Shown piece by piece: positions 1 to 50,569 of a DNA stretch of 64,000 nt. This DNA is from an uncultured virus (IMG/VR IMGVR_UViG_3300005458_000016). Taxonomy: Duplodnaviria > Heunggongvirae > Uroviricota > Caudoviricetes. The translations under genes were made by a program, and so were the position numbers. The stretch is taken from IMG/VR virus record IMGVR_UViG_3300005458_000016. One strand, 5' to 3'. Numbering within the stretch: position 1 is the first letter of the stretch; every line of letters begins with the position of its first letter. The notes beneath the pieces were generated by a model that did no database searches, was not told the DNA's origin, and saw only the letters and a program-made list of their open reading frames with translations.

Positions 1-3000
1 AGTCGCCAGCCTTGATGTGACCGCACCCGGAAGCCCCGAGAACTGTCGCGATGACAGCGGCAGATGCCGCGATTACTGTCTTGTTCATTTTCCTTTACCT
101 TGCCGGTTTATCAGTTTTATGGCTGCGATGAGGATTGCCAGCCCGAGGGCTGCGGCAATCCAGTAGAACGTCACTGTGTGAGCCTGCGAGCCTTGCGCCT
201 GCGGATCCTGCGGACGATCGTGGAGACGATCTCATCCCCGATGACCCCGATGACGATGCCTGCCCCGAGGATTCCCAGGATGATGTGGATGAGGTGATGA
301 ACGAGATGCATTGTTTTCTCTTTCTTTTCTCTTTGTTATCTCGGGAGGGAGACAGCCAGCAGGAATGTCGCCAGGCATAGCGCAACCCCGATAGCGCTGA
401 TCTTCCATTTCTTGCTGTAAGGAACCGGGAGGAGAATTGAGAGGACGATAAGCAGAGTCCCCGCGACCAGCGGGATACCTGCGATAATGTCATTTGCGGT
501 CATGTTGCACTCAATCTATGAAAGCGAGGATCGTCCCGATAGCACACAGGACAGTCCCTATCCCGTTTACTATGATGCGTGTCTGTACCTGTCCTGCGAA
601 AACGATCGCCCAGAAAATGCACAGGAATCCCGTTATGATGAGGATCAGTGCCGCGACCCCCATTACTTGCCTCCCGTGATCATGACAAAAAAGGACAGGA
701 AGCATACGATCGACCCTGCCCCGAAGAGGAATATCCTGAGCCCGGGGGTCTTGACACGCACGATAGCCGCGAACAGGATCAGAAGGCAGCCTGCGGTAAG
801 CAGGATCAGGGACGTGAGCAGCGTATCACTCATGCCGGTCCTCCTCGTGACTGTATCCCGGGGGGAGGTTGACCACGGGGCAGGTCAGGTAGTGTATTCC
901 GTTCACCCCCGTGCACTTGACGCACGGGGGTGTGAAATCGCCAGGCTGGATCACGGGGTTTCCTCTGGCTTTGCGGTTTCCCTGGTTACCTTGATCCAGG
1001 TTTCGAGGAGGGTGAAAAGCTTCGGGAGCGGGTCCCCTTCCATCATGATGCGCTCGGTTTCCGTCTCGATGAGCGCCTCAACCTCGTCAGCGGCTTTCAG
1101 CGCGGTTTCGGTGATAGCATAGTCGCGGATGAGGTTGGCGCGGGCTTTCACCCACGAGTTTTTCGAGATGGTGCTTACCAGGGTCGCGCTGGTAACATCC
1201 TCCGGGTTGGGGAGTGTCATTCTTTTCCTTCCTTGAACGGGTCACCTTCTCCTGCGAGAATCATCCGGAACCGCTCGATCCTCATGCATGCAGCTGAGCA
1301 GGCAAGCAGGCGAGCGGGACACGGGTCCCCGCAGGACGGGCATTCTTTCATCGCGCAGCCTCCTGAGAGGCTGCTGGAGCCATCGTGAGCGCTAGCGCGG
1401 GGTGAACTGAGCACCCTGGGTGCGGGTGGCTCCGCGTCCATCCTGCGCTCCCGAGGCGATGACTCCACTTGCAGACGCACTTAGAGTCAAGAGTCTCCGT
1501 GGTTACCGCAAGGATCAGTGCCTCGCGTAGAGTACGATCACTAGTGCTGCTGCCGTGAGCACGATCAGCACGCACAAGGTTTTCACCCATGGTCCGCTCC
1601 ATAGTGACTTGGGTTCTGGCTTGGGCTTCCTTCGCGGCTCGGACATCTACCCGATAACCTCGGAGAATTCCACTTTGACGTATTCCACGTCCCCGCTGTC
1701 ATCCTCGTACGTGGACACCTCGAACCCTGAGACCTCGTTTTCCGCGTACTCGTCCAGGAGTTCGTGATCCTGGGGCATCCTGAGCAATTCTGCTACCGCT
1801 TCGTGTACTTTCACAGTTCGTTCCTCCGTGAGAAGATGTACTTTTTCGATGCCGTATAGTTACATTTAAGACTGGAGCACACCCATGCTCTCCAGAGCCC
1901 TAGCTTGCGCGCCATGCGGCGCATCCGCATCAGCCTTGCTCCGCAGCGCGGGCACTTACTCATCGGTAACCTCGTTCGTTTCGAGACACTCATCGATCTC
2001 GTCTAGGATGTACGTGATGTCTGTGATACCTGGTGACTGGGTAGTGTAGACTGGTTCGATCGTGGTGTCAGGGGTTTTACGATTCCGTGACCTGATCTTG
2101 CGGATGAGCTGCAAGTTTCCCTCCCTGGAGGCTGATCCTGGGCAACGGTACCAGCCAGGGAGAGGCTTGTCAACGGTTACCGTGAATGTTCTTCCAGGAA
2201 AATCAGGAGCGCAGGCAGACCTGGCTTTTCGAACAAAGCTCCGCATGTACAGAGAATGTGCGTTCCCTCGGGGAGCTGCTCTACCTGGATCCTGTGCTCC
2301 CGGTGCTTGCCTGCTGTCTCTTCCGTGTGATCGGTCATCGTCATTCCCCTAGCCTGCTGATCAGGTCGGAGAATTCGCCTTCCCATTCGACTGTCTTCGT
2401 CCGCTGGTTACCCCCAGTGCGGTAGCTTATCTCGACTACCGTGACCGAGTATGCGCACGTATCGCAGTAACCGCGCTCCTGCCTGTCAGGCCGGAAGTCC
2501 ACTATTTCTGTCGCGTCAGTCTTGCCCATCTCTTCTTTCAGGAACTTCAGCAAGGCTGCGTTGAGCCCGTCTTTCCAGCTCATTTCCTACCTCCCCAGCT
2601 CATCACTCTCGTATGCGATGCTCAGCTTCCCGATATTGAGATGGAACGCGTAGATATCCCCCCCGAAGGAAACCCACACTTTCCAGTTCGGGGACTGGTA
2701 AACGGTTTTCTTACGCTGCTCCCCTCTCCAGTAGTAATTGTCGTACTGGTGATCCCTCCGGGGAATCCAGTCCCGAAGGGCCTCAATCAGCTCGATGTTC
2801 ACTGCCCCATCCTCTGCACGGGTATCAGCTCCAGTTTCGTCACCCCGAGGGTGTTGAGATGCGCCAGGACAGCTCCCGTCATCAGCTGTTGCGAGGCGAC
2901 ATCATCGTTGTACGTTGCGTAGAACGTACTCCCGTCCGCGTCATAGCGGATCAGCAGGATTTTCATCATTCTCCTCTGGCGGTTTGTTTCGTACCATCCC

Positions 3001-3405
3001 CCAGAACCACAATAGCGTGTACAGGTTAGGGGCGTTCGCCGCTATCCAATAGTCAGTCCTGCGGGGGAGCCTGATCACTGACGTTCCCGTCATTGTCGCG
3101 AACCATCAGCCGCGCCTCCCCGTACGGGAAGGATGCTTCCACCCAGGAATGCCCGCTGCGGGTCTGTTCCAGGAGTTCTACCATCCTGGTGCATTTCTCG
3201 CACATCAGATCTCACATACTTTCACGAATCCCACGTCACTGCCCGCGATCCGCGCAGACGTGACCTTAGCGAGATGCTTTCCGCATGTCCCTACGGCATC
3301 TTCCGGTTTGATATACACCGCGAAAACTGCCGGGTTTCCGCAGGGATATCCGTGCTGCAACCCCGAACAAAGACTACGTGGCAATCCTTTTCCGCTACGT
3401 GGCAT
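1..3405 (-). CDS. Block of short leftward hypothetical phage genes (e.g. 511-705, 951-1220, 2341-2583, 2587-2802), several membrane or Cys-motif peptides
   Basis: Abutting or overlapping minus-strand ORFs with AGGA/GGAG Shine-Dalgarno sequences; no recognisable domains. Confidence 0.6.
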
Positions 3406-3428
3406 TTCTTTTCCTAAGCTTGTATAGT
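3399..3428 (+). promoter_or_regulatory. Putative sigma-A-like promoter for the isolated rightward gene
   Basis: GTGGCA-18 nt-TATAGT in an AT-rich divergent gap. Confidence 0.4.
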
Positions 3429-3475
3429 GAACATAGCTTTCCCCGTACTTATTCGATTGCATGTTCAGGAGTTGT

Positions 3476-4072
3476 GTGCCGAAATCCAAAGACCTTGACC
3501 TCGCGGACCGTAACCGCATGATCCGCGAGATGCGGGATGAGGGACGCACGATGCAGGTGATCGCGGACACTGTAGGACTGAGTAAAGCCCGCGTGTCTCA
3601 GATCCTGGAAGAACTGGACGATGAAGTTTCCCTCGGGGGATACCGTGCGTTTCTCGCATCTCAGGGTGAGCTGGCACTCCGGGAGATCACGAAAATCCTC
3701 CTGAAAGACTCCCCGATCAAAGTGTCCGCTGGCGGGAAAGTCATGTACTACCCGGACCCTGACGACCCCAGCGGCAGGACATCCGATTTCGACAACCCCA
3801 TTTACGATGACACGATTAAGCTTGATGCCGCGAAGGCAATGTCCCCGCTGCTGGACAGGCTGTCCAAACTGCGCGGTGCTGATGCCCGTCCGCAGCGTGA
3901 CATGATTGACGAGGACGCGGTAAACGAGGAGATAGCGTACGTCCAGAAGCTCATCAGCGATCGTCAGCGGCTCGCTGACAAGCTCCTGGAGCACGGGGAA
4001 GTCCTTGATCTCTCGTCTTATGAGGGGTATTACGAGGCGGAGGTTATCTCCCAGGAGGATTCCCCTGGATAA
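3476..4072 (+). CDS. HTH DNA-binding protein, probable terminase small subunit-like
   Basis: N-terminal HTH (RDEGRTMQVIADTVGLSKARVSQIL); LLDRLSKLRGADA resembles the RRAKLLGLDAP motif of actinophage TerS-like proteins; SD AGGAG before GTG 3476. Confidence 0.55.
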   Translation: MPKSKDLDLADRNRMIREMRDEGRTMQVIADTVGLSKARVSQILEELDDEVSLGGYRAFLASQGELALREITKILLKDSPIKVSAGGKVMYYPDPDDPSGRTSDFDNPIYDDTIKLDAAKAMSPLLDRLSKLRGADARPQRDMIDEDAVNEEIAYVQKLISDRQRLADKLLEHGEVLDLSSYEGYYEAEVISQEDSPG

Positions 4073-18800: not shown

Positions 18801-21800
18801 ATCCGCACCATCCCGGGACGATATCCCCACCCTGTCTGCGCGGACAGGAACAGGCTCATGTCCCCGCTAACCAGGAACGCTCCGACTGTGTGCTCCTCCC
18901 ATCTCGCGGACCATTCCCCAGGGAGATGGGTGGCGATTGCGGTTGCCAGCATCCGGACTTGATTCCTGTTCACCATTCCTCCGATGAGCACATGAGATCA
19001 CCGTAGGTCATCTCGTTGTCTTCCGAATCCCAGGGGATGTCGATCGTGTCATTCCCCGATTCGATGCTTGCGCAGAAATCCGTGATTGACTGGAAATCTG
19101 CGGCGTGCGTATCCAGCCACGACTGCACGGATTCACGGGTGATCCTGCCTTCCCCGTGCATGCGGATGGTGTCCACGTCGTGATTGGTCAGCGTGAGCTG
19201 GCTTGCGGCGGGTACCGGGGGCATCCAGATCACCCCGAGTACATCAATCAAAGACGTTCTCATGGTGTACCTCATGTCATCACCCCAGGATTCCTGTGCA
19301 GTCATTACAGGTGATCTCACGCTGATGGATCACGTAGGGTCCCGCTTCATCCGAGGACACCCCGGTAGCTGCACCGCAGACCGGGGTCTCCCGCCACAGT
19401 GGACGATCCTCGGACAGCTCACCGAGGTCGATGGCATGCACGACACCATTGTCATGCTCAACCCCGTCATATCCTTGCGGCGTTCTCACTTCAGCATCCT
19501 TTCCGGGACCTGTATCCAGTTCCCGTGCTCACACACTTCCCCATCTTGACTGAGGAACCGGTTGACCACGATGTTTTCCCGCTGATGCTCGCAGGCTTCC
19601 GGACCGCACGCCGCGATCACTCCGCACTGCGCACAGTACGCGTTGTAATCCGGGGAATCAATGTCACTGCGACCCTCGTACTTGAGTCCGCGTTCACGAT
19701 CGTAATCGAGGTGACACGAATTCGAGCACAGCGGGATGATATCTACCAGGTCACCGTTGCTCGCGTTTATCGCATGGCAGTGCATCACTCATCACCTGCG
19801 AATTCAGACAGCCTGTCGTTCTGATCCTCGGGGACATACCCCTCGGTCAGGAACCCCGCGACGATACGCGCTGCCTGCTCATGCGTCTTAGCGGTCCCGG
19901 TATACAGGTCCGCTCCGAACATCACAGGCTTCCCGTCACATGTCGCGTTGTACTCCCACAGACCTTCGTAGGATTCCCCGAGGGTGCCGCCTCCCACCTT
20001 GGACACGCTGATCGTGATCCTCGGTTCCGAGAATTCCGGGAGCAGCATCTTGGGGACTATGACGGTGTATTCGTAATCGCTCATGTTCCCTCCTTACAGG
20101 TTCACGTTGTGGGGGATAATGTCTGACTGTCCCTCCACCTGGCGGATACGCTGCGTCATCCTGAGGGCGAGTGTCTCGTCACTCACCGATGGATAGAGGA
20201 TCTTGTAGATGCTGGGAAGCTCACCCATGAGCTGCCGTCGCTGCTCACTCGTCATGTGCGTGAGCATCCACATGATGAGCATGTCCTTCTCGTGACTGAC
20301 CAGCTTGCGCATGTCAGACCTCCATCCATTCACTCTGCAGCGTGTCCCCGTCCGATTCGGTATACTGCCACCGTGACAGGTCCACCGCGTACAGGGAATT
20401 GTCATACTCAGGGGATTCCAGTGCCACGTTCGCCTCGGAGAGCAGTTCTTCGAGGCGTTCCGTCATCGACTCCCACGCGTCGAAGCTGTTCCCGGGAAGC
20501 TGCCAGATGCGTTCCGCAGCATCGAACCACCGTAGTGGAGGCATCATTGCGTTCCCCGTGACCCACGCGATAGGGTCACCCCCGGAGTTACGGGCAGCCT
20601 CGATGATCTCCCGTGCGATCTCGCTAGCGGCTCGCTTGGCTGTGTTCCGTGTCATGATCACTCCTTTCGAGGGTGACTCTAGTACGTGTTGCCGTGCTTG
20701 TCTAGACGGTGGGGAGAATGTCCTCCGGAGAGCAGATGAACGAGGGACACTTGTCCTGGGTGAACGAGCAGCCGCAGCGGGTGCATGTCTTGATAGGGAG
20801 CCCCTGATATTCCAGACCTGTATCCCAGGAGGCCACCCCGAACCATCGCAGCCACCCCTTACGGGACCGCCATCTGAGGATCTTCATCACCGCACCAGCA
20901 TCATGCGGGACAGGTTCGTGTACCCGCTGGAACGCCTGCGGACGCGTGCCAGATGCGCAGGCACCGGGACATCAGCCTTCGGGACCTTGCGGTTGAACCG
21001 CGTGCTGCGGAGCTTCGGGGGAGTCTCGCGGAATTCCCGCTGGGGGCGCGACTCCGTGACGATGGACAGGTCATCCACCGGGAGAGCGCGGACCTGCCCG
21101 GTGTTGTCCATCTTGACGTGGACCAGCTTCCTTGCGGGGTGATCCACTGTCCCGTGCGTCTTGTGCTTCGCGGAGTAGACGCGGGTCCCGTCCGGGAAAT
21201 CGGAGAGTTTCACTGGCTCATCCTTTCGTAGAACTGAATGCACTTGTCACACGCGGGGATGATCCCCACGGGACCGCAGTCGATGGTGCCCGTTGCGAGG
21301 ACACCTTCGTGGTTGTGCCGTGCCGAGTACTGGCATAGCTCGTTCACTAGTGGTACCTCCTGCGCGACTCATCCCCGATGACCTCCGGGGGGTTCTTGTC
21401 GAAGTCGATAACCCCGGGGAGGTACCCGAACCCGTGGTAATTGCCCGTCTCCATCAGGATGGTTTCGAGGAGACTCGCCACCATCAGGCGACTGTCCGGG
21501 GATACGTCATCCGCTGAGCGTTCCAGCATCCCGTTGACGAGTTCTTTCACCCGTTCCACCGGGATTGTCTTACGCGGCATGTTTCCCTCCTTTAGCTGGG
21601 ACGACCGGGGACGATGTGCCAGGCTCCCCCGTAGTAGTCCACGTTGCAGGAGTCTTCCGTGGGACAGGCAACGGATGTCACCTGACTGCGGGTGACTTGC
21701 GCTATCGCGTATCCCAGGGTGACCCCCAGAATTCCCGCGATAAGCGCCACGATCACGATCTTCTTCATCACTTCTCCTTAACGAACCGCCATAGTCCGCT

Positions 21801-22000
21801 GACATACCGGAATTTGTACATGGCTCCGCTACCGTCCCGCGTATTCACCCACAGCGGGTGACCTTCGGAGTGACCGCCGCGCCCGTAGTTGCGGAGCCAG
21901 TTCTCGATGGCGGCATCACTCAGCCACGTACGCTCCCGGAGGAGTATCGCAGCGGTAGCAGGGAACAGGTTCATTCTTCCTCCTCGGATATGGCATATGC
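15801..22000 (-). CDS. Long run of small early hypothetical genes (e.g. 16802-17398, 17498-17845, 18219-18425, 18422-~18976, 18970-~19275, 19280-19489, 19486-19788, 19785-20084, 20887-21243, 21347-~21580)
   Basis: Tightly coupled minus-strand ORFs with GAAGG/GGAG SDs. Confidence 0.65.
20676..20704 (-). promoter_or_regulatory. Sigma-A-like leftward promoter
   Basis: TAGACA-17 nt-TAGAGT on the minus strand. Confidence 0.65.
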
Positions 22001-22139
22001 GAATCGGGGAATGCGGAGAGTACCCGTGGGGGGTTTCTGTGACTACTCTCCACAAACCTCACATTCATTTATGCCTCATCGGCTAATCAGAGTCGGATCA
22101 GGTATAGGCACCTTTGGCTAGCTGTGCACCGCGATATCC

Positions 22140-22820
22140 TCCTTTCCGTGATACCAGGAATGGCGAGAGTAATTGACTCTCGCCAAACCTAGGACAACGG
22201 ACCGGGCAACCTAGCTATAAACCCGCTAGCAGGGAACACTCTCATTCCCGGTTAATAATCAAGGAATGAGAGATCACCGTGTTACATCAGGATAAATAAC
22301 TCACCGCTATTTCCCTTTCTCTTAGAGTCAGATATCCCGTAAGATGGCTGAATCGCGTGGGGATCACGATGAATCACGATGCACTACCGCACAGAGGTGA
22401 TGTCACGGATCGTTCAGGCAAAGCGATTAAAGCCATTGTCTTACGGGATGTCTCACCCTAAGAGTGAGCGGACTCGCGAACGCACGGTCTTCCATCCTTA
22501 CCCGGTAGGGATGCGCATCCCGCGCTACTCCCCTTTGCGTTCCAGCCCTCTGGGGACGGTTCCAGCTTGCCAGCCGCGTATTACCGCTGGCTTTCCGGGA
22601 ATTCCGCCAGAGCGTATGTGCCCTGGAGTCTCGCTTTCCGGAACAATGGTTTCACGGTTAATCTTCATTCTTAAGACGAGTGTTATCCGTGATCACACGT
22701 CATACTCCCGGATCGCTTGCGCCGGTAGGTTGGCGGCTGTCCGGGTCTTGGCTCGCATATCTGCTTGCCATTAACTGAGAACAGACGGTAAGCCCCTGAC
22801 TGCTAGTCAGAGGCTATGTT
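22140..22820 (-). other. Non-coding, hairpin-rich region
   Basis: Long imperfect helices such as 22319-22356/22424-22464, GGCGAGAGT-AATTG-ACTCTCGCC and CTCTCATTCC...GGAATGAGAG; no convincing ORF. Confidence 0.55.
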
Positions 22821-22913
22821 CGAAACCGCATCATGATTCCTGACTGAATAGTCGTGAACATATGATGACTAATCTCAGATGCATGCAAACCGCAGACTGC
22901 CTAGACGTGGTTG

Positions 22914-23171
22914 TTACTCTGTCAGGTCCGACTTGTGGATCACCAGGGAGAGATACCGTACCCCGACTAGCCCGGGGGTACGGGACGGTTCCAGTTGCCC
23001 GGAACCCCGCCCGATCTTCAGACGTGGCTCGGCAACCGCCATGATCGCGTCATAGATCTTCTCGGTGTACTCGGGGTGACCTTCCAGCGTGATCGTGCAG
23101 AAAGTGTCACTATCGGGCACCGTGAGAGATACGGGTGAACGCTCTTCACGATTACTGTTACGAGGAGGCAT
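22914..23171 (-). CDS. Hypothetical protein (85 aa) inside stem 1
   Basis: ATG with CAGGAAA SD; ORF fits between the arms. Confidence 0.7.
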   Translation of the reverse strand: MPPRNSNREERSPVSLTVPDSDTFCTITLEGHPEYTEKIYDAIMAVAEPRLKIGRGSGQLEPSRTPGLVGVRYLSLVIHKSDLTE

Positions 23172-23259
23172 TGTTTCCTGCCTATCCCTAGGCAGCCTGC
23201 GGAATGCATGCACCGTTGAACACACATGCTGTACGCGCTTAGGTGACGGATGATCTCAG

Positions 23260-23508
23260 CTAGTTGTTACGGTAGTGGTTCACTACCCGCAGCACGGAAA
23301 GCTGGAAGTTGACGGTACCCTCACCCGTGCTCAGGGAAACCCCGTCACGGGTGAGACAGGCGTAACGCCCGTTCTTCTTGTGCAGAACGTAACCCACGAT
23401 CATGTGGTTGACCGTGACCTCAAACATCTCCTCGCTTATCGCGGAAACCCCGAAAGCGTAGGGAGCGTTCATAGCCAACCCGGATATCTTGTATTCCTCA
23501 CCATGCAT
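23260..23508 (-). CDS. Hypothetical protein (82 aa) inside stem 2
   Basis: AAGGAGA SD; ORF fits between the arms. Confidence 0.75.
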   Translation of the reverse strand: MHGEEYKISGLAMNAPYAFGVSAISEEMFEVTVNHMIVGYVLHKKNGRYACLTRDGVSLSTGEGTVNFQLSVLRVVNHYRNN

Positions 23509-23750
23509 GATGTCTCCTTAAAGAGACATCCGTCACCTAAGTACGTACAGCATGTGCTTTTGCCCGTGAGTGCCTATGGAAGACACGGTTTACGTTGGGT
23601 CACTGTGCTTTGGGCGGCTACCATAGCTCAACCGAGAGTTAGTGCTCACGCCTACTCACTACCGTATACAAGCGTATTACCGTGCCTTTCAAAGGCACTC
23701 ACAGGCAAGAATGCATGTGCTCTCATTTGATCCCACGGGAATGCGGGTTG

Positions 23751-24110
23751 TTACTTGTCGTTGTTCTTCGGGTTGACCAGCTGGGGGTTGTTCGTGTCCC
23801 CGACCGTCGCCTTCCGCATGAGCGTGAGCGACAGGGTGTTCGTCCTGTCGATGCGCTCGAACTGGGCGTTGGCGCGGATGACCGTCTTGCCCGTGGACGA
23901 GACGTGCATGTCCTGGGCGCGCAGCGCCACGAGGATCACGTCGCTGGGGAGGTCTTCGGGCTCCAAGATCGCGTAGTGTCCCGTGTCCCACTCGTCATCG
24001 CTGGGGAGCGTGACGGCGAGGACCGTGGGAGCCTGCACGGGCGGGGGAGTCTTGACCTGACTCCCGTTGCTGCGACCCGTGCGACCGTTGTTACCTGACT
24101 GCTGTGCCAT
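23751..24110 (-). CDS. Hypothetical protein (119 aa) inside stem 4
   Basis: AAGGA SD, high GC3 codon bias. Confidence 0.75.
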   Translation of the reverse strand: MAQQSGNNGRTGRSNGSQVKTPPPVQAPTVLAVTLPSDDEWDTGHYAILEPEDLPSDVILVALRAQDMHVSSTGKTVIRANAQFERIDRTNTLSLTLMRKATVGDTNNPQLVNPKNNDK

Positions 24111-24228
24111 GGGATTGTCCTTATCCTTGAGTTTCTGTTCTTGTGGTAGTGGATATCCCATGGGACCAAAAGAGAGCACATGCACCCTGTGAATGCATGC
24201 ATGCACGCTAACCTACCGGGAGTGGTTG

Positions 24229-24486
24229 TCACTTACTGGCGACTAGTTCAATCAGGTCCGATAGTGCCACGATCCCGGGGGTAACCGGGAGATGTTCCGG
24301 GGCGTGATGCTTCCCGATGCGTTCGATCCGGAATTCCGCAGGGAATCCCGAATTGGTCGTGATGACCTTGAATCCGTGATACCCGTTGGAATTCCCGTGT
24401 ATAAGCGCTTCCGCGATCATTCCCGCAATAACGCTGTGCCCTACGTTCTCACTGAGCAGGTACTGATACACGCTACTCTCAAGCAT
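24229..24486 (-). CDS. Hypothetical protein (85 aa) inside stem 5
   Basis: AAGGGAG SD; ORF fits between the arms. Confidence 0.7.
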   Translation of the reverse strand: MLESSVYQYLLSENVGHSVIAGMIAEALIHGNSNGYHGFKVITTNSGFPAEFRIERIGKHHAPEHLPVTPGIVALSDLIELVASK

Positions 24487-24738
24487 GGTGTCTCCCTTGC
24501 CCCGGTAGGCAAGTGTGCATGCATGCACCCGTAAAGCGCGTCACCCGATGTGTTCAGGCAAACGGTGAAATCTGCTGGTAAATCGTCCCGACCTATACCA
24601 GGTAAACATTGGATTTAGGGACACAGATAATCACCGCATGCACAGAGCACATCAGGTAATGCGCTTATCCGTCACCGTAAAGCGAACGGTTCCGTAAGTG
24701 TAATGGTGCATGCCATCTGACTAGCGGAATTAGTGTTC

Positions 24739-24897
24739 TTAGTTAGCGTTGTGGAGAATCAGCGGGAACGTGACGCGTATAACGTCAGGTTCCAGGGTCT
24801 GGATTATCCAGCCTTTGTCGTTAATGCGCTGCTCTACGATGCCGTTATCGTGCTCAACGACAGCTAGTACAACTTGCGAATTAGCCAGTGCATCCAT
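24739..24897 (-). CDS. Hypothetical protein (52 aa) inside stem 7
   Basis: ATG 24897; ORF fits between the arms. Confidence 0.55.
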   Translation of the reverse strand: MDALANSQVVLAVVEHDNGIVEQRINDKGWIIQTLEPDVIRVTFPLILHNAN

Positions 24898-25932
24898 TGA
24901 TGACTCACTTTCTCCGCTAATCAGATGGCACGCACCATCACCCATTCTTGGTGACGGGATTCCCACTCGCGACATCTGTCAACTGTCGCGTTGGGTGCAT
25001 GCTGACAATGAGCTAGGGCGTAGCTCAATCGTCGCTGGCGCGTTCAATGCCAGCCTACATATCGTCGCTCTCACTCCCGTGACGCATACTCCACCGTGGT
25101 TACGCTGGCAACTTGTGATTTCTTGGACGCGAAACATCTCGCGTTGCAACGCGTATAGCAAGCTATTCGCGCATCGCTTACCCTCACCCAATTCGCAGGA
25201 TCGGCAAGCTTTGCCAATTGCAACGATATGCTTTTAGTGACTAGGCATCTCGCCTAACGGGAATTACCCGCAACCCAACCGTTTTCCGTATGTCCCCCAT
25301 TCCCACTAGCGCGAGATGACACGTTTACCGGGGATACGGTTCACCAGCGTCAAAGTGCTGGCTACACCGTTGCTAAAGTTGTCCCCGACGTGTCACCCGT
25401 TGCCTCACAGAGCATTCTTCTGAATCCCGGTATCCCTACCGTGAGACAGATGCCCATCAAGGTCTGGGGCGGACTGTCGTCGCTTTACGCATCCACGTGT
25501 TACTCAGTGATTACCGACTGATACCTAGGATCAGGTACCGATTTTGGGCATATAGCCAAGGTAATCGCGTGCCTGGCACGTGTTACGTGGTTGTCTAGAG
25601 GTCACGGGACCGTCCCGCACATCACCCTCCAGTGTCCCCCAGGCGTGGATATAGATGCCTGGGTCTGACCTACGGGCAGAGTTCACCCGTAGCGTGTCCA
25701 CTGCGCCAGCCCATCGGGGCGGTGGCACGTGGACCATGTACATCCACGTGGCGCATGTTCTCCTGAGGCGAGCGGCGTATCCGCTCCCGCCGTGCTGGCG
25801 GCCGTGCTGACCAACACCCCAAACACTATCAAACCCAAGCACCCCACCAAAACGCGCTGACCTGCTGAAACGTAAATGATCATGCTCTGACCAGCACGTT
25901 TGCCTCTCTGCAAGTTTTCCCGTCCTTTTTCA

Positions 25933-25948
25933 TGTGACCTAGATCACA
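25933..25948. promoter_or_regulatory. Consensus CRP/GlxR binding site
   Basis: TGTGA-CCTAGA-TCACA. Confidence 0.65.
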
Positions 25949-26634
25949 CCCTCTGACCTGCGGAAACTCCGAAAAGTAATCGCTTGGATACGCTGTCCTT
26001 AGCGAGGCTAACTGTTAACGGCGTTAGCAGTGTCCGTTTTGTCTACGGACATTCCGGATATTTCGGACATGCCCGAATTGCCTGAATTGCCCTAGTTTTC
26101 GCCCTGGAATCCGAAATTCCGTTACCATTCCGTTACAATTGACGCCCGATATGTCCGTTTTGTCCAGGTCACCCCCTGTCCGAAATGCCGGGAATGTCCG
26201 AATTCAGATGTCCGTTATGTCCCCTGATGTCCGAATTGAGGCATTGACTGAACAGTCAGTCAGACTTTACTCTCCCTTTACCTTGGCTTTACGTTCTTTA
26301 ACATCTAGCGCTTTGGTAGGAAATAGGGTCTGACCTGCGGAAACACCCTAGAACCAGAATGGTAGGGAAACAGCTGAGAAGCTTCCCTATAGGAAAACTA
26401 GGGAATGCATTTATCCGCATATATCCTGAATGTCCTAGTACAGGCAGACTAGTTGCATTGCAACCAATCCTCGCCCTGGTGAGCGATCCTGTGACCTGCG
26501 ATCCTGGGACGATGCCTCTAGCTGGCTCTCAGAGAGCCACCAGGAGGGTTTTGGTACCTCTCAGGCACAATCCCCAGGGTCATTCGAACAAAGCCGTTTC
26601 AGACTCTCTCAGATGCCTCGTTCGAAAGGTACGC

Positions 26635-26651
26635 ATACCCCTACGGGGTAT
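26635..26651. promoter_or_regulatory. CsoR-type operator
   Basis: ATACCCC-TAC-GGGGTAT palindrome with C/G tracts. Confidence 0.55.
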
Positions 26652-27271
26652 GGTACTAGAACCCTATTTCGAATTTCACCCACAGAATCCCTGGTCACAG
26701 ACCTGGAATAGGCACATTGCACATGGTAGTAGTTGAAATTCGAAAAAATGTATGCTACCCTGTGATGGTGCCCCGGTGCTAGAGAAAGAGTTCGAATTAC
26801 CTCGACAACCAGGGTACACGTACAGTGTACAGGTAGCGTTCGAACACAACAGAGTGTGCCATGCTACGCTGTTCGATATTGAGTTCGAATTCTACGCGCC
26901 TCCAGAAACTCGAAATAGTGTTCGAGCGTTCGAACGTTAGTCACGCTAACGATATCGTATATGACCAGCTCAGAGGATCGTTAGCACTGCTAACCAAAGT
27001 AGTTTCCCTAGCTAACAGTAGGGATATACGATGTAGTTAGCTAGACTAACGTTACTGTGTTCGAATTACGTAGCCTGAGCTGAATTCGAACACAGGTTAG
27101 TTAGCGAGGCTAAAGATTCGCTTAGATAGAGCTGATGTTCGAAAAATGCCGTCAGACCACCAAGCGAATTTCTAGAAGTTTCTCAGCACGTAAGGTTGTT
27201 GTCTCAGTTTCTGAGTTCAGATTTTAGTAAAGTAAAATCCCTCGTACGTAAGGAATTCGAATGCAGGAATA

Positions 27272-27305
27272 CAGAAAACCCCCTAAGAGACTCCCAGGGG
27301 GTTCT
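27272..27305 (-). terminator. Intrinsic terminator of the leftward 27.3-29.5 kb genes
   Basis: CAGAAAACCCCCT...AGGGGGTTCTG hairpin with a T-run on the minus strand. Confidence 0.6.
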
Positions 27306-27321
27306 GTGTTACTCTTTGAGA

Positions 27322-27552
27322 CTAGTCTTCTAGCTGCTCATTCATCTCTTTCAGTGCCTCGAAATGCCCTGTGTCCTGGAGTTCGCAGGTAGCGCATTTC
27401 CTCCTGGTGCACATGTCCTCGTCATGCCCTGGGTTGGTGAGGATTCGTTTCAGTATCCGGATCATTCCAGGACGCCTCTCCAGTTCTGATCCTTGTGGGT
27501 AATCCTCCACCACCAGGGCTGGTGCAGGTAGTAGTGTCTCTGTCTCCCGCAT
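27322..27552 (-). CDS. Hypothetical protein with His/Cys motif
   Basis: ORF with SD; H..C...CxxC. Confidence 0.55.
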   Translation of the reverse strand: MRETETLLPAPALVVEDYPQGSELERRPGMIRILKRILTNPGHDEDMCTRRKCATCELQDTGHFEALKEMNEQLED

Positions 27553-28594
27553 GTATCGCAGAACTTGTATCTTGGTCTCGCCATGCTCCTAGGGGAAGGG
27601 GTGAATCTGTGAGGCTTGTCTCTTTTCAATTCCTGTACAGCTCCTTATGGAATATCCTCCACCATAGCGGCTGGTGCATTCTGTAGTGGCTCATCCTGAG
27701 ACAGGTTTCGCAAAACCTGTATTTAGACTGGGGGTGAGTATGCGGATCGGGGATGAACTTGTGTGCCCGTTTCTTTTTCGGGGTTCTCGTTACCATGGTC
27801 CTTCTTCCTGGTATTTATTCTCCCAGTAAGCGCGAGGATCGAATACTTCCTCGGACTGTCCTCTCAGCGGGATAGGCTCTTTCCTCCTTCTCGCGGGAAT
27901 CTCCGCCCTCGGGGTGAGGATGATCATCCCTGACAGGGTTTCCTCCGCCTCGTAGAAGACATGCTCCTGATGGGCTCTCCAGGTGACATCAATGCTCCCG
28001 TTGAGCACGGCTACCTCATGCGTGTTCAGCGGGTCCTCCTCCGGTTGAGCCCGCAGGGGCAGGTGCAGTTTTTCTTTACCCGGAACGGGTGATGCATCAG
28101 CAGTACCCTGCACCGGAAGCACGGGCGCAGTCTTCCTCTCATGGTCCCTCCTCTGGGAATAAGATCGCGGACTGTGGTGTTGCACGAGGCATGAACAGAA
28201 CTAACCTGCCATCCTACCGCAAGATCCAGTCCGGGGAGAGCAGTTATATCCTGCATCTCACTGTCGCGATAGCAGTGTTTGTCACTTGCTGCTGGCCCTA
28301 CTTTATCTGGCATGGGACAGATCAGTCTGGGGGATGGGTGTGGGATACCTCCTCCTGGACCGCGTGTCTCCTGTGGTGGCTGGGAGTGTCCCTGCTCCTC
28401 GGGGTGATCGCGGTGCTGAACAAAGCGAGAGCAGATTCTCGTCACCTCCCGTACGTCCGGAGCAAGAGGGATGCCAGGGAGCTGTCCCGCTTGAAGAACC
28501 GCCTGCTCCAGCTGAGACTGGAGGAGATGCGCTATCGCCAGGGTCTGAGGAAAGACGATTTGCGGTCTCAGGAGGACATGATAACCACCCTCCC

Positions 28595-29953: not shown

Positions 29954-30721
29954 ATGGCACGCGCACGCACGCTTTCCCAGCTGGTTTCCACGATCACGGG
30001 TATCCGAGCCCGGGATAACGATTTCGGGAAGGAAATGATCAAGAGGGTTCAGAACGAATCCCTGACCACGGGTCTGGTGAAAATTCACCACCCGCTTGAG
30101 GAGCTGACTGAGGAACAGCGCAGGGGCATGCTCCTCGGGACGCAGCCTGACGTTAACAAGCAGGTTGCGCTGACTGTTCCTGACGCGCTCCGCCAGGCAA
30201 TGGAGTACGCGATCCCGGCGCTGGACGCGGTTGCCACCAACGACCGTACCAACCAGGACGCGAACGCGGATGTCGTCCTCCCGGACGGGACGGTACTGCT
30301 TGCGAACGTCCCAGTCAGTCACCTGCTGTGGCTGGGCAAGTACCTGTCCGAGTGGCGCAAGTTCATCGCGGTCCTGCCTGTCCTCGACCCGACGAAGAAC
30401 TGGACCGCAGGGGACTCTCACGTGTACAAGGCTGACATGGAAACCCGCGTGAGCAGCACCAAGAAGGTCGTTCCCCTTGTCTTGCACCAGGGGAACGACA
30501 AGCACGCGCCCCAGGTCCAGGCAATCGAGGACACCATCCCCACGGGACACTACCAGTCGGTTGCCCTGTCTGGCGCGGTCTATCCCTCGCGGAAGCGGGA
30601 GCTGATGGACCGGTTTGATATGGTGATCGCGGCGGTGGATGACGCGACTGCCCGCGCTAACCAGACCCCGCTCGTGGACGTGAAAGAAGGGGAAGCCCTG
30701 ATGAGCTTCCTCCTGGCATAG
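29954..30721 (+). CDS. Uncharacterised 255-aa helical protein (recalled as a DUF7873-like family) directly downstream of the ncRNA
   Basis: VPVSHLLWL, LPVLDP, TKKV, KHAPQV, SGA motifs; GAGGAAAG SD; family name from memory and unverified. Confidence 0.75.
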   Translation: MARARTLSQLVSTITGIRARDNDFGKEMIKRVQNESLTTGLVKIHHPLEELTEEQRRGMLLGTQPDVNKQVALTVPDALRQAMEYAIPALDAVATNDRTNQDANADVVLPDGTVLLANVPVSHLLWLGKYLSEWRKFIAVLPVLDPTKNWTAGDSHVYKADMETRVSSTKKVVPLVLHQGNDKHAPQVQAIEDTIPTGHYQSVALSGAVYPSRKRELMDRFDMVIAAVDDATARANQTPLVDVKEGEALMSFLLA

Positions 30722-46240: not shown

Positions 46241-49200
46241 ATCGCAAGAACCGGCGCTATCGTTAATGCGCTCAAGTCAATCCCCGGGGGTGCGCGCCCC
46301 ACGTATGCTCCTCAGTCGAGCGGCATGGGTCGCATTTCCCCTGTCCAGGCGAACGCCATGTACGCGAATCCGTACCAGGATTCCTATGGTCCGTTCCTGC
46401 CTCGCCCGAGCAGCGTGTTCACCGATGGCGCTTTCGCCCCGATGTCCCCGATCCAGCCTGTTCCGCTGGACACTCCTCCCCCTGGCGGGCTTTTCGCGGA
46501 CCCCAGATGGTGGCAGTACCCCGTTGGGTGGAACCTTCCCACCCAGCCGGGATCTGAAGGGCTGAAACTATGCTCATTTGAGCAGCTGAAAACCCTTTCT
46601 GAGCGTTATTCTGTCGCACGGCAGTGCATTGAGCTGCGGAAAGACGAAATCCTGGGGCTGAACTGGGAAATCACGATGACCACGGACGCCGCGAAGGCTT
46701 ACCAGGGTGATCGTAAGGCTATGCGGGACTTCGGGGAGCGGAAAGCAGAGGTTACCAGGTTTTTCAAGCGCCCGGACCCTGATTACTGGTCATTTTCCTC
46801 GTTCCTGGACGCGCTGCTTGAGGAAATCTTCGTTTATGACGCGCTCGCGGTCATTTACCGCCCGAAATACGGAGCTTCCATCGGAATGGGAGGGAGAGGG
46901 CTCCTCGGGAGTGACCTGGACTCCCTGAATCTCGTCTCCGGACCGACAATCCGACCCCTTCTCGACCTGCATGGCGGGAGACCCCGCCCTCCAGCCCCCG
47001 CGTACCAGCAATATCTCTACGGGGTTCCCCGTAGTGACTATATGACGATGGCTACTGGCAGGGATATCGATGACGCGGGGCTTGCCGGGGCTGAAGTCAA
47101 CGAATTCTCCTCCGATATCATGCTGTACGCGCCCCTGGTGAGCAGAAGGGAGACTCCGTACGGATTCCCGTTCATCGAGAGGGCGCTCCTCCCGATTATC
47201 TCCGGGTTGCAGAAGCAGGAATTCCAGCTTAACTACTTCACTGAAGGCACAGTTCCAGCGGTTTACATTTCGCCTGGCGATACGAACATCACTCCCACGC
47301 AGATCGGGGAGCTTCAGAACGCGCTGAACGCTATCGCAGGAGACCCCGCGTATCACCTGAAAGTAGTCGTTCTCCCTCCAGGGAGCAAGGTTGAGCCGCA
47401 GCGCCCCGTTGACCTTTCTGACAGCTTTGACTTCCTGGTCATGAACCAGGTATGCATGGCAGCGGATGTGCAGCCTGAGGAGCTGGGGATCATCCCGAAC
47501 GTCGGGGCAACCCCAACGGGACCTTCTGCTTCCGGTATCAGGATGGCAGGACAGGAATCACGGAGTATCCAGTCCCGGAAATCCGCGAAGCCTCTCCTCA
47601 AGTTCATCTGCAATATTTTCAATTACGCTATTCAGGACATCTGCCAGCAGCATGACATGCAGTTCCAGTTCGAGGGGCTTGTCAACGACGAAGACAAGCA
47701 GGCTATCACTGAACTAGGCGTACAGCAGGTCCAGAATGGCATCGCGAGCATTGATGAGGTCCGCGAGCGTCTCGATCTTCCCCCGTGGGGACTTGACGAA
47801 ACCGGGGAGCCTGTTGTCTTTACCGCGCAGGGTCCCGTGCCTTTCAAGATGGCAGCCGAACTGATCATGATGGCAGCACAGGGCGGTGCTGCTGGCGGTC
47901 AGGGTACTAACGGCGGTCAGAAAGCAGTCAAGAAGAAGCCAAAGCCGCGTAAAGGCGGGGGAACCAAGCCGAATGGCAGCCACCCAGCCCCGTTGTCTCC
48001 TCATCGCGAAGGCGTCGGCACTCCGCAGCACCAGGCTGCCCAGGGTGCCGTCCAGTCTCCCACTCCAAGGACAGGCGGGACCACTAACAGGACAAGCACG
48101 GCAGGGAGCCGCAAGAAAGCTGCTGCCAGCGAGCTGGAATCCCTGAAACGACACCTCCGCAAGGGCAGGGAGATTACTTCCTGGGAGCCAGTGCATATCA
48201 CGAACCGCATTCTCGGGATGATCGCGGAGGATATCGCGAAAGGCGTCATGCTGGACACCGCGATAGACCGCGCTCTCGACATGACCGAGAAGTTTGCTCC
48301 CGAAATCCCTATCGCTCCTGTTCCTGTTGACGAGAACACGGTAAATGCTCTCGACCCTACCTGGTGGAAGTACCCGGTGGGATGGAACCTGGAGAAGTCT
48401 GATGCCCCCTTTCCAGGATGGGAGCATGACCTAGGTCTCATCGGGAGATACAAGCAGGAGATCGCCCAGGGTTTCGCGAAAGCAGAAGAGGCGGGTTCAG
48501 AAATCCGCCAGCAGGTCGCGGTGGGGAAGCTAATGATCCCCAACCGGGTGATGTACGACCTGATCTCGGAGAAAGTCCGGGAGGTTCTCACTGAGGTGAT
48601 GACCCCGCTCTGGGAGAAAGCATGGAATCTCGGATACAGCTCCGCGAATCAGCTTCTAGGGAAAGACGCGGGAATCCTGGGGACTACTGATAATCTCCAG
48701 GCGTTCCTCGACACCGAGGGTGCTCACTGGCTGGACCAGGTTGCCCGCACAGGACTGAAAAACGCGAACTCCCGCAGTGAGGTCATCGCGAGGACCGAGA
48801 TTGCCCGCGCCCTGAACGCAGGGGTTATCCAGTGCTACCGCGATAATGGGGTAACGCACAAGCACCTGGGGATTGCCCCTGATGACGCCTGCAAGATCTG
48901 CAGGAAGGTAGCGAACGAGGGACCGATCCCCCTGGACGCCCCGTTTTCCAGCGGGGGTCTAGGGGGTCCCTGTCACGTACAGTGCAGGTGCGTCCCGCTC
49001 CCCGCTGGGATGAATATCGTCCCTCCTCAGTCTCACCTGGGAAAGTCGGACTCTAACGTAGAAGACAGTACCCGTACCGCGTGGCTGCTCATCCGGGCAA
49101 AGGATGAGAAGGGAAAATGGCGGTATCTTCTCCAGCAGCGTCCTGATGGTTCCTGGGGAATGCCCGGGGGCACCACTCATATTGACGAACCCGGGTGGAG

Positions 49201-50569
49201 TGCTGCTTACCGGGAGACGGAAGAGGAAATCGGGGCTCTCCCCGCGCTCACTGTGATCCGTGATTTCACCCACCAGGACCCGGACGGAAAGACTGCATAC
49301 CTGTACTTGTGCGAGACGAACATGTTCAAGCCGCTGATGAACGGGAGCACCCCGGAGGAAACTCTTTCCACCGCGTGGTTCCGCAGGGGCGAGATCGAAG
49401 ATCTTGATCTTGTCGGGAAGTTCCGCGACGACTGGGTGAAAGAAATCCACCTGCGTGACCAGCTAGGGGACATGAAATCTCCGCAGAATCTCGTCAACGA
49501 AAACGGCGAATGGATGGTCCTAGACGACCCTGACAGGCACGGAGCCGGGATGGGTTCGCGCTGGGTATATCCTCACCACGCTAACGGTGAGGAGTTCGGG
49601 GATGCGGGTCCTGGCGGCTATCCAGGGGCAACCCCGGGAGGTAATCCTCCTCATTTCGAGGCGAACAGGATGGACGCTCCCCCGCAGACCAGGGTGTATC
49701 CGCGTGGTCACGAGGACGAGTTCCCGGAGGAACGGGAAAAGCCCCCCGCGAGGAGACGTAAGACTCCTGCTGGCGGTTTCCCGGTGGTGGAAGATCCAGA
49801 GGAGCAGGAAGTTAACTCCACCGGGATTCAGAATATATCTGCGAACACAGGAGTTCCCCCGAGCGGGAAAGGCGTACATCCTGTAGTAGGGTCAGTTCCC
49901 GCGAGAACCCCGCGTCCCATGTCTCCGCATTCAGAGCCTCCTGAGGTGTTCAACCCTGCGGATACTGTTGAGCAGTGGGACCCTGACAGGGAAAGCGATG
50001 TTGTTCACGATCTTTCGGGCGTGAAACTGTCCGCGAAGCAGATCGAGCAGCTGACCAGGAAAATCCAGGAAAATCTCCTCAAGCAGGCTCGCCGCAACAA
50101 CAGGACAATGCTTACCCTCCCAAAAGGGGCGGCTGACATAGGCGATCCTAACCCGGTTGAGTGGCGTCATGTATACGCCCAGCTAGAAGGGAATTTCCCC
50201 GATAAAGCTCTCGAATGGGTGAAGCACAGCACCTGGATCGGTCCAGTCAACGTCCCCTGGGAGAGAGTGGATGATGACGATATTGATTCCTGGGCGGCAT
50301 CACATCAGCCTGAGGCTGTTGCCAGGTTCGCGAAAGAGATCGCTAAAGGCGGGGCACACACTGATCCGTCCATTCTAGTCCAGCGAGCCGATCATCCTGA
50401 CGGTCGTGCGATCGTGATTGACGGACATCACAGGGCAATGGCACGGCATTTCAAGCTGAACAAGCCGGTACTTGCGTATGTTGGCACCGTGCCCGAACGA
50501 TGGATGCAGCAGGCACTTGAGACGCATTCATCTCAGATACACCAGGGCAGTGATCCCGGGAATCGCTAA
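46241..50569 (+). CDS. Portal protein fused to MuF (gpF-like) head-morphogenesis, Nudix hydrolase and ParB-N-like domains
   Basis: Portal motifs (YGFPFIE, YFTEGTVP, SIDEVRERLDLPP); MuF ARTE...CKIC...HVQCRC; Nudix box GG..HIDE......YRETEEEIG; IDGHHR; start is ATC 46241 or ATG 46325. Confidence 0.88.
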   Translation: MARTGAIVNALKSIPGGARPTYAPQSSGMGRISPVQANAMYANPYQDSYGPFLPRPSSVFTDGAFAPMSPIQPVPLDTPPPGGLFADPRWWQYPVGWNLPTQPGSEGLKLCSFEQLKTLSERYSVARQCIELRKDEILGLNWEITMTTDAAKAYQGDRKAMRDFGERKAEVTRFFKRPDPDYWSFSSFLDALLEEIFVYDALAVIYRPKYGASIGMGGRGLLGSDLDSLNLVSGPTIRPLLDLHGGRPRPPAPAYQQYLYGVPRSDYMTMATGRDIDDAGLAGAEVNEFSSDIMLYAPLVSRRETPYGFPFIERALLPIISGLQKQEFQLNYFTEGTVPAVYISPGDTNITPTQIGELQNALNAIAGDPAYHLKVVVLPPGSKVEPQRPVDLSDSFDFLVMNQVCMAADVQPEELGIIPNVGATPTGPSASGIRMAGQESRSIQSRKSAKPLLKFICNIFNYAIQDICQQHDMQFQFEGLVNDEDKQAITELGVQQVQNGIASIDEVRERLDLPPWGLDETGEPVVFTAQGPVPFKMAAELIMMAAQGGAAGGQGTNGGQKAVKKKPKPRKGGGTKPNGSHPAPLSPHREGVGTPQHQAAQGAVQSPTPRTGGTTNRTSTAGSRKKAAASELESLKRHLRKGREITSWEPVHITNRILGMIAEDIAKGVMLDTAIDRALDMTEKFAPEIPIAPVPVDENTVNALDPTWWKYPVGWNLEKSDAPFPGWEHDLGLIGRYKQEIAQGFAKAEEAGSEIRQQVAVGKLMIPNRVMYDLISEKVREVLTEVMTPLWEKAWNLGYSSANQLLGKDAGILGTTDNLQAFLDTEGAHWLDQVARTGLKNANSRSEVIARTEIARALNAGVIQCYRDNGVTHKHLGIAPDDACKICRKVANEGPIPLDAPFSSGGLGGPCHVQCRCVPLPAGMNIVPPQSHLGKSDSNVEDSTRTAWLLIRAKDEKGKWRYLLQQRPDGSWGMPGGTTHIDEPGWSAAYRETEEEIGALPALTVIRDFTHQDPDGKTAYLYLCETNMFKPLMNGSTPEETLSTAWFRRGEIEDLDLVGKFRDDWVKEIHLRDQLGDMKSPQNLVNENGEWMVLDDPDRHGAGMGSRWVYPHHANGEEFGDAGPGGYPGATPGGNPPHFEANRMDAPPQTRVYPRGHEDEFPEEREKPPARRRKTPAGGFPVVEDPEEQEVNSTGIQNISANTGVPPSGKGVHPVVGSVPARTPRPMSPHSEPPEVFNPADTVEQWDPDRESDVVHDLSGVKLSAKQIEQLTRKIQENLLKQARRNNRTMLTLPKGAADIGDPNPVEWRHVYAQLEGNFPDKALEWVKHSTWIGPVNVPWERVDDDDIDSWAASHQPEAVARFAKEIAKGGAHTDPSILVQRADHPDGRAIVIDGHHRAMARHFKLNKPVLAYVGTVPERWMQQALETHSSQIHQGSDPGNR

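Follow-up and report, generated by a model that had tools for sequence, protein, structure and literature searches.

The stretch of 64,000 nucleotides analysed here, which we call the window, belongs to an uncultured soil phage of the Caudoviricetes (IMG/VR record IMGVR_UViG_3300005458_000016). At 24941-22878, on the minus strand, it carries seven consecutive units (U7 to U1), each consisting of a 5' arm, an interior and a 3' arm. Together they form an array at the head of a leftward gene block, directly after a 2.3-kb repeat-rich region that is poor in open reading frames (ORFs). We think it rather probable that the minus-strand transcript of this array folds into seven private helices which are likely cut by ribonuclease III (RNase III) of the host, splitting the polycistronic RNA into units in the way pre-rRNA is split. 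According to this explanation, one long minus-strand transcript would fold such that every small gene or non-coding stretch is closed in its own loop, host RNase III would cut the helices, and trimming after the cut would remove the arms and leave unit-sized RNAs without them. The enzyme would have to come from the host, because no RNase III domain was found in the 135-kb virus record (G001, 88% complete). Near-perfect duplexes of 26-37 bp are generic substrates of RNase III, and the cutting of the helices appears plausible. An excerpt of a study in Bacillus subtilis (PMC11780869) describes that RNase III cuts inside long-range intramolecular mRNA duplexes. The genes of the array are presumably early genes, as judged from their position only.

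The repeat search and the global minimum-free-energy (MFE) fold of the minus-strand RNA 25060-22780, taken as one molecule of 2281 nt, agree on the arrangement. All seven long-range helices are recovered in the fold, and each arm pairs solely with its own partner, at the sites given in the original prediction, which had been made from the sequence of the window. The helices comprise 26-37 pairs with energies of -52 to -61 kcal/mol each (Table 1). They are near-perfect and their central mismatches are conserved; the U5 helix contains conserved A-C and U-U mismatches and the U1 helix a conserved 2x2 U-rich internal loop. Helix U7 is fully paired, as had been claimed, with three G-U pairs instead of two. 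In the MFE fold it is lengthened by an outer 8-bp helix (24957-24950 / 24676-24669), in which GGUGACGG of the 33-nt spacer between U7 and U6 (24667-24699) can pair with CCGUCACC upstream of U7.

The spacers between the units measure 33, 3, 2, 0, 3 and 7 nt from U7 to U1, which is mostly short, as predicted, although the lengths of 3-10 nt and once 36 nt had to be corrected. Five of the seven loops each enclose one ORF with a Shine-Dalgarno sequence, in agreement with the prediction, and the other two, U6 and U3, are indeed non-coding, with loops of 47 and 71 nt rather than the 60-80 nt given before. The stop codons lie 7-10 nt ahead of the 3' arms and the Shine-Dalgarno sequences closely behind the 5' arms. 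All cargo is promoter-less, single-ORF and of one orientation. For none of the five cargo proteins was a Pfam or PHROG family found. Rfam gave no match in the window at the gathering score and two chance-level matches only in 21800-27400 at E up to 5; a self-cleaving ribozyme was not found in the Rfam searches of the window. At the U5/U4 junction (24201-24177, minus strand), the GCAUGC palindromes of the adjoining arms can form a weak local hairpin followed by a U-rich run, which is terminator-like. In competition with the long-range helices, this hairpin could serve as a switch.

Table 1. Units of the array, the downstream helix U0 and the abundant upstream RNA (window positions; pairs of U7 to U1 as counted in the MFE fold)
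Feature	Position	Strand	5' arm	Interior	3' arm	Pairs	Remarks
U7	24700-24941	-	24941-24913	52-aa ORF, 24897-24739	24728-24700	29	3 G-U pairs
U6	24534-24666	-	24666-24623	non-coding, 47-nt loop	24575-24534	37	long hairpin
U5	24191-24530	-	24530-24501	85-aa ORF, 24486-24229	24220-24191	28	
U4	23708-24188	-	24188-24156	119-aa ORF, 24110-23751	23740-23708	32	
U3	23561-23707	-	23707-23669	non-coding, 71 nt	23597-23561	34	long hairpin
U2	23222-23557	-	23557-23527	82-aa ORF, 23508-23260	23252-23222	30	
U1	22878-23214	-	23214-23187	85-aa ORF, 23171-22914	22905-22878	26	
U0	22303-22480	-	22480-22437	non-coding	22346-22303		eighth helix, downstream of the array
Abundant structured RNA	25053-25807						contig depth 29-33 in three runs; strand not given by contigs

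A chance origin of the helices is excluded. We scanned the whole 135-kb record G001, which is identical to the virus record of the window, for inverted repeats 40-900 nt apart. Eight of them score at least 16, and seven of these eight fall within G001 902-3521, the 2.7 kb of the array. Among ten dinucleotide shuffles of G001, nine contained no repeat with such a score and one contained a single one; none reached 18. The claim that the outer ends of the arms often read UGCAUG is borne out by the distribution of TGCATGCA, which has nine copies in the genome, six of them at stem bases in the array, where 0.14 would be expected. The motif GUGCAUGC is common to the arm bases. Apart from the GCAUGC motif, the arms are unique to each unit, so that each pair has its own sequence, as had been stated.

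Moreover, the helices favour the coding (minus) strand. The seven helices U1-U7 contain 22 G-U pairs when read on the minus strand and six when read on the plus strand, and the minus-strand duplex is the more stable one in all seven units. With U0 included, the counts are 24 against 9, U0 itself being about equally stable on both strands. For the helices of the window and of the relative L027 combined, there are 43 G-U pairs on the minus strand and 23 on the plus strand, and the duplex energies sum to -1069.9 and -997.7 kcal/mol, respectively.

L027 was found in a metagenome scan via the DUF7873 anchor protein (window 29954-30721; alignment A1). Its anchor protein is 75% identical, and the 10 kb upstream are present. 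On its minus strand, L027 contains eleven such helices in about 3.3 kb, seven of which are homologous to U0, U1, U2, U4, U5, U6 and U7 of the window. We followed the fate of 220 pairs of the window in L027: 163 are unchanged, 17 carry a one-sided change and are still paired, 10 are changed on both sides and still paired, 12 are broken and 18 are gapped. The arms of U7 show two double and three one-sided changes without any break, while its interior is not alignable. The U6 helix carries four double and three one-sided changes and six breaks, and its arms are much less conserved than its loop sequence; they are also less conserved than the 33-nt spacer between U7 and U6, where 2 of 33 aligned positions differ. 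In U5, the 3' arm is 96% identical and one pair has changed from U-A to C-G, whereas one pair in U4 has changed from C-G to U-A. The homologue of U2 forms a helix of 37 pairs, and that of U0 (L027 1266-1133) shows two double changes. In U1, a GC insertion of 2 bp is matched in both arms. The interior of U3 is homologous as well; here, the outer ~25 bp of both arms have been swapped for an unrelated, again complementary pair of arms (28 pairs). In this one relative, the helices are kept by compensatory change.

The arms of U1, U2, U4, U5 and U7 differ from those of L027 at about 25 of 300 nt (about 8%). Third codon positions differ in 26 of 80 aligned codons of U1 and in 42 of 120 of U4, which corresponds to 33-35%. 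By this measure the helices are shown to evolve about four times slower than synonymous sites, an estimate drawn from one pair of genomes. The U4 ORF differs at 25, 15 and 42 first, second and third codon positions, respectively, and the third-position excess of changes in U1 and U4 is as expected of real genes. RNA-level selection on the minus strand, which the original prediction had proposed from the mismatches, is supported by the G-U asymmetry of U1-U7 as well as by the compensatory changes and the matched insertion in L027. A sequence motif described as shared by the spacers fared less well: it is clear at three of the six junctions and is not kept at the matching junctions of L027, and we dropped it as a feature.

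The inverted repeats might instead be neutral and kept alike by gene conversion between the arms, and the phage does encode a Rad52-type annealing protein. Gene conversion would, however, erase mismatches, yet the G-U positions and internal loops are conserved in both genomes, and it leaves unexplained the clustering of the helices, their tiling and their fit to the gene borders. We regard this explanation as scarcely credible.

Further DNA relatives of the array were sought in several collections. The phage collection contains no match to 22500-25300 or to 25000-25900, a search of genome contigs for array relatives gave no match, and viral contigs, queried with three single proteins, with two alignments and with a DNA pattern, yielded only the same phage. 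Alignment A1 added distant relatives, whose contigs are without array DNA. Among the relatives with 91-93% identity (L023-L026 and L028), the contigs break off within the repeat-rich region, except for that of L025, which ends at window position 24765, just short of the 3' arm of U7. For the U4 protein, two further relatives (P0055 and P0056) were found, one of them encoded on a contig of 95.6 kb.

The comparison with L027 also reveals that whole units come and go. Three units of L027 are without counterpart in the window, Ua upstream of U7 as well as Ub and Uc between U5 and U4, and each of them is inserted whole, with both arms, exactly at a spacer. The cargo proteins of the window and L027 are 84% identical for U1, 73% for U4 and 43% over 67 residues for U2. 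In U5, near-identical stems and a near-identical ribosome site enclose unrelated proteins (BLASTP E 0.23). Hence the stems are kept while the cargo changes: the U5 proteins are unrelated and the U7 interior cannot be aligned. The original prediction had named exchangeable gene cassettes as its alternative and had suggested looking in relatives for swapped cargo between conserved stems. Exactly this is seen in U5, and together with the gain and loss of whole units it supports the cassette alternative too. The stems would double as homology slots of about 30 bp for the swapping of cargo genes, which would explain the unrelated ORFs between near-identical stems; such an exchange could be catalysed by the Rad52-type annealing protein of the phage.

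A stricter form of the cassette idea places the recombination at the DNA level, with the two arms as halves of one folded recombination site which are joined on excision of a circle, similar to integrons. One-gene modules that come and go are known from integron cassettes and from the PeSL-type mobile regulatory cassettes of T4-type phages, and the array resembles both in this respect. That Ua, Ub and Uc are present or absent whole, with both arms and exactly at spacers, would fit mobile cassettes, as would the promoter-less, single-ORF and uniformly oriented cargo. We nevertheless consider this form of exchange improbable. The model has the arms travel with the cargo, whereas the cargo of U5 and U7 differs between conserved stems; the G-U asymmetry favours the transcribed strand, and the arms sit tight against the stop and start signals. 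Unlike the integron and PeSL cassettes, the repeats of the array are private and bracket the gene instead of forming one shared intergenic element. The integron array itself was rejected as a candidate: no tyrosine or serine recombinase (PF00589, PF00239) was matched in the 135 kb of G001 (88% complete), the attC-type core GTTRRRY is present at one of six junctions as read by eye, and the repeats bracket ORFs. Terminal inverted repeats of insertion sequences or miniature inverted-repeat transposable elements were rejected as well. Here, too, the arms are unique per unit apart from GCAUGC, and a scan of part of the genome's ORFs revealed no transposase.

Coming back to a folded transcript that is cut into units, we used Logan contigs of three rhizosphere metatranscriptome runs (X8-X10), which contain 31-39% of the words sampled from 22000-26000. 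The array region is transcribed in nature. No RNA contig covers 25914-27083 or 21000-22400, and these uncovered stretches argue against a carry-over of DNA. The interior of U4 is covered in all three runs (23750-24152; 23754-24156; 23744-23940 plus 23916-24151), and that of U1 in one run (X9, 22910-23187). In each of these cases the contigs contain the loop only and none of the arms, which the proposed cutting followed by trimming would fit. Seven of eight distinct clusters of contig ends lie at most 11 nt from an arm edge (binomial p about 4e-4, with a threshold set after seeing the data); the remaining cluster is an overlap break within the U4 ORF. These data hint that the continuity of the RNA is interrupted at the stems. 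Contig depth is 2-9 in the array, compared with 29-33 for the contigs 25053-25807, 25058-25806 and 25061-25686 upstream of it.

Several points weigh against the proposed explanation. Assembled contigs give no true ends, strand or level, and contig ends at stems could also stem from reverse-transcription or assembly trouble at duplexes. A contig of run X8 (24490-24698) spans the complete U6 unit and the entire 5' arm of U5 without a break, and another one of the same run (24915-25084) covers the 5' arm of U7 and links it to the RNA at 25053-25807. In L027, 12 of the 39 changed pairs no longer pair, and most of these breaks fall in U6, in U0 or at the ends of helices; its eleven helices alone show a weak strand asymmetry (19 G-U pairs on the minus and 14 on the plus strand). 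L027 is the sole available relative with array DNA, and the changes therefore represent few events. Finally, the host is a presumed actinobacterium, and its RNase III is presumed as well.

The helices might also form in the RNA and remain uncut, acting as clamps that isolate each cistron as a folding domain, shield it from decay of the RNase E/J type or join stop to start for re-initiation. The structure and the covariation fit this equally well, the stop codons 7-10 nt from the 3' arms and the start regions right behind the 5' arms would suit it, and the contig that passes intact through U6 and the 5' arm of U5 speaks for it. On the other hand, the arm-less contigs of U4 in three runs and of U1 in one run are contrary to persistent clamps, and the duplexes, near-perfect over 26-37 bp, are generic substrates of RNase III (PMC11780869). 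We consider such clamps possible, though unlikely. The arm-less contigs bear in the same way on the idea of end-paired, stabilised mRNAs put forward in the original prediction, which we do not favour.

Another way to arrive at arm-less RNAs would be transcription of each unit by itself, from a promoter in the 5' arm to an end before the 3' arm, so that both arms never occur in one RNA. RNA contigs that start at the inner edge of the 5' arm and stop short of the 3' arm look as this would predict, and the arm bases have the GUGCAUGC motif in common. However, separate transcription gives no reason for the complementarity of the arms, for compensatory changes or for matched insertions and deletions, and both arms of U6 as well as the 5' arms of U5 and U7 do occur in contigs. 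A search of the minus strand in 21500-27600 for sigma-70-like promoters gave none, although this test is a weak one if the host is actinobacterial. It is very improbable that the units are transcribed in this way.

The original prediction had also raised the possibility of circularised mRNAs. Here, the excised gene loops would be sealed by the RtcB RNA ligase of the phage into circular, exonuclease-proof mRNAs with the stems as excision points, and each early gene would be a small circular mRNA on which ribosomes cycle. Because RNase III leaves no cyclic-phosphate ends, another nuclease would be needed, one that leaves such ends and recognises the shared GUGCAUGC stem base. In none of four RNA runs was a back-joined contig found in the array; this is weak evidence against circles, since contigs drop rare forms. 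The only joint in the four runs, 25696/25786, lies outside the array. We regard circular mRNAs as a long shot. The RtcB gene lies at L044:16582-17751 (E 1e-107) and that of a peptidyl-tRNA hydrolase, PTH2, at L045:8302-8760, both in G001 outside the window. RtcB is also the ligase that circular mRNAs would require; next to tRNA genes, as here, tRNA repair is its usual reading.

In a full-text literature search we found no published account of phage genes which are individually bracketed by long-range stems. New here are the RNA data, the matched insertion, the replacement of arms and the unrelated cargo between conserved stems. Several known systems share parts of the design that we propose, a folded polycistronic RNA that is cut at its helices. 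In phage T7, the early polycistronic RNA is cut between the genes by host RNase III, which yields separate stable messages, and the cleavage sites are local hairpins. The likeness to the array is that of a phage polycistronic RNA cut by host RNase III, which for the array is our proposal. Intercistronic hairpins of the T7 type were rejected as a description of the array: its arms pair across a gene and not across a junction, neighbouring arms across junctions are not complementary beyond the shared palindrome of 6-8 nt, and there is one weak junction hairpin only, at 24201-24177. Intervening sequences with an ORF are known from 23S rRNA, where a small ORF in the loop of a long stem is removed by RNase III. 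These are single elements inside an rRNA gene, whereas the array consists of tandem units of a phage message. Pairing between the 5' and 3' ends of an mRNA is known from the fbi element of hok. Long-distance pairing of the two ends is also reported to control the fate of the icaR mRNA of Staphylococcus aureus (PMC3868564), which resembles the single units. In icaR and hok, a single gene has its ribosome-binding site masked by the pairing, while the array leaves the Shine-Dalgarno sequences just beyond the stems and applies the design to one gene after another.

The layout also resembles that of the leader-trailer helices (processing stalks) of bacterial rrn operons, which are cut by RNase III around 16S and 23S rRNA. 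In both cases the two flanks of each product form a long-range duplex within one transcript, several loops stand in tandem, and the duplex length suits RNase III. A long-range flank duplex of at least ~20 bp is present in all seven units, and compensatory pairing is seen in one relative. The array differs in what its loops enclose, either a small protein gene that brings its own ribosome-binding site or a short non-coding RNA, and in that seven to eleven such loops, each with private arms, follow in a row in a phage; its cutting, moreover, is something that we infer. A stable RNA as the enclosed product, as in rrn, was rejected: five loops hold protein genes, with the third-position excess seen in U1 and U4, and no Rfam match was obtained. 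In rRNA maturation a crude cut is followed by trimming, as an excerpt of a further study describes (PMC6144821). The mRNA sites of B. subtilis RNase III in the excerpt mentioned above (PMC11780869) are likewise long-range, with paired cuts on the two sides of a stem that can be separated by up to 1 kb. As described there, these sites are scattered, single and mostly serve decay, whereas the array is tiled and brackets every cistron.

Two transcribed stretches flank the array. The RNA at 25053-25807 is about 750 nt long, lies in an ORF-poor stretch and has a contig depth 5-10 times that of the array. Its fold is far more stable than that of shuffled sequences, with z about -5.2 on either strand. 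In a core of ~440 nt (about 25655-25205) one position differs from L025, compared with about 80% identity in the flanks. No Rfam family matches this RNA, L027 lacks it, and the phage collection contains no match. This RNA is probably the leader of the array transcript; it may be such a leader or a new large non-coding RNA of the phage. Downstream of the array, 22435-22779 is covered by RNA contigs from three runs. Within it, a block of 61 nt (22650-22710) is 96.7% identical to L027, and an overlapping ORF of 47 aa is not conserved as protein. Probably this is another non-coding RNA.

The region 25900-27300 is ORF-poor and very rich in short repeats, namely TTCGAA-containing repeats, GTTAGC...GCTAAC palindromes and GGACAT runs. 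Contigs of several other assemblies start or end in it (G001, G002, L020, L023-L024 and L028). The region could represent an end of the genome, an origin or nothing more than a trap for assemblers. Three minus-strand copies of GTTTC(C/A)GCAGGTCAG (25852-25871, 25948-25967 and 26325-26344) are found upstream of the abundant RNA and are candidates for a promoter or operator. AGGTCAGACCC recurs where the conserved core of the abundant RNA begins.

The phage encodes a terminase, WhiB, a DNA polymerase III beta clamp, SSB, a Rad52-type annealing protein, RtcB and PTH2, as well as NlpC/P60 and LysM lysis domains. It carries 35 tRNA genes at L045:2429-13402 (G001, outside the window). Its gene content looks actinophage-like, and WhiB points to an actinobacterial host. 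At 46325-50569 there is a protein of 1414 aa that fuses portal, MuF-like head-morphogenesis and NUDIX domains. Two adjoining small ORFs at 27320-27800 on the minus strand are duplicates of each other and show, as read by eye, a C-x2-C motif followed by a tryptophan-rich stretch.

If the explanation proposed here is true, the first genes of these phages would be written as self-contained RNA modules, each consisting of a stem, a ribosome site, a gene and a second stem. It would extend the design of rRNA processing to messenger RNA and allow the phage to process many tiny host-takeover genes transcribed from one promoter, to balance them and to protect them. The layout would, moreover, be a natural insulator part for synthetic operons. 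Since genes could be swapped via the same stems with their neighbours undisturbed, such units would provide a physical basis on which the most variable part of phage genomes could evolve in modules.

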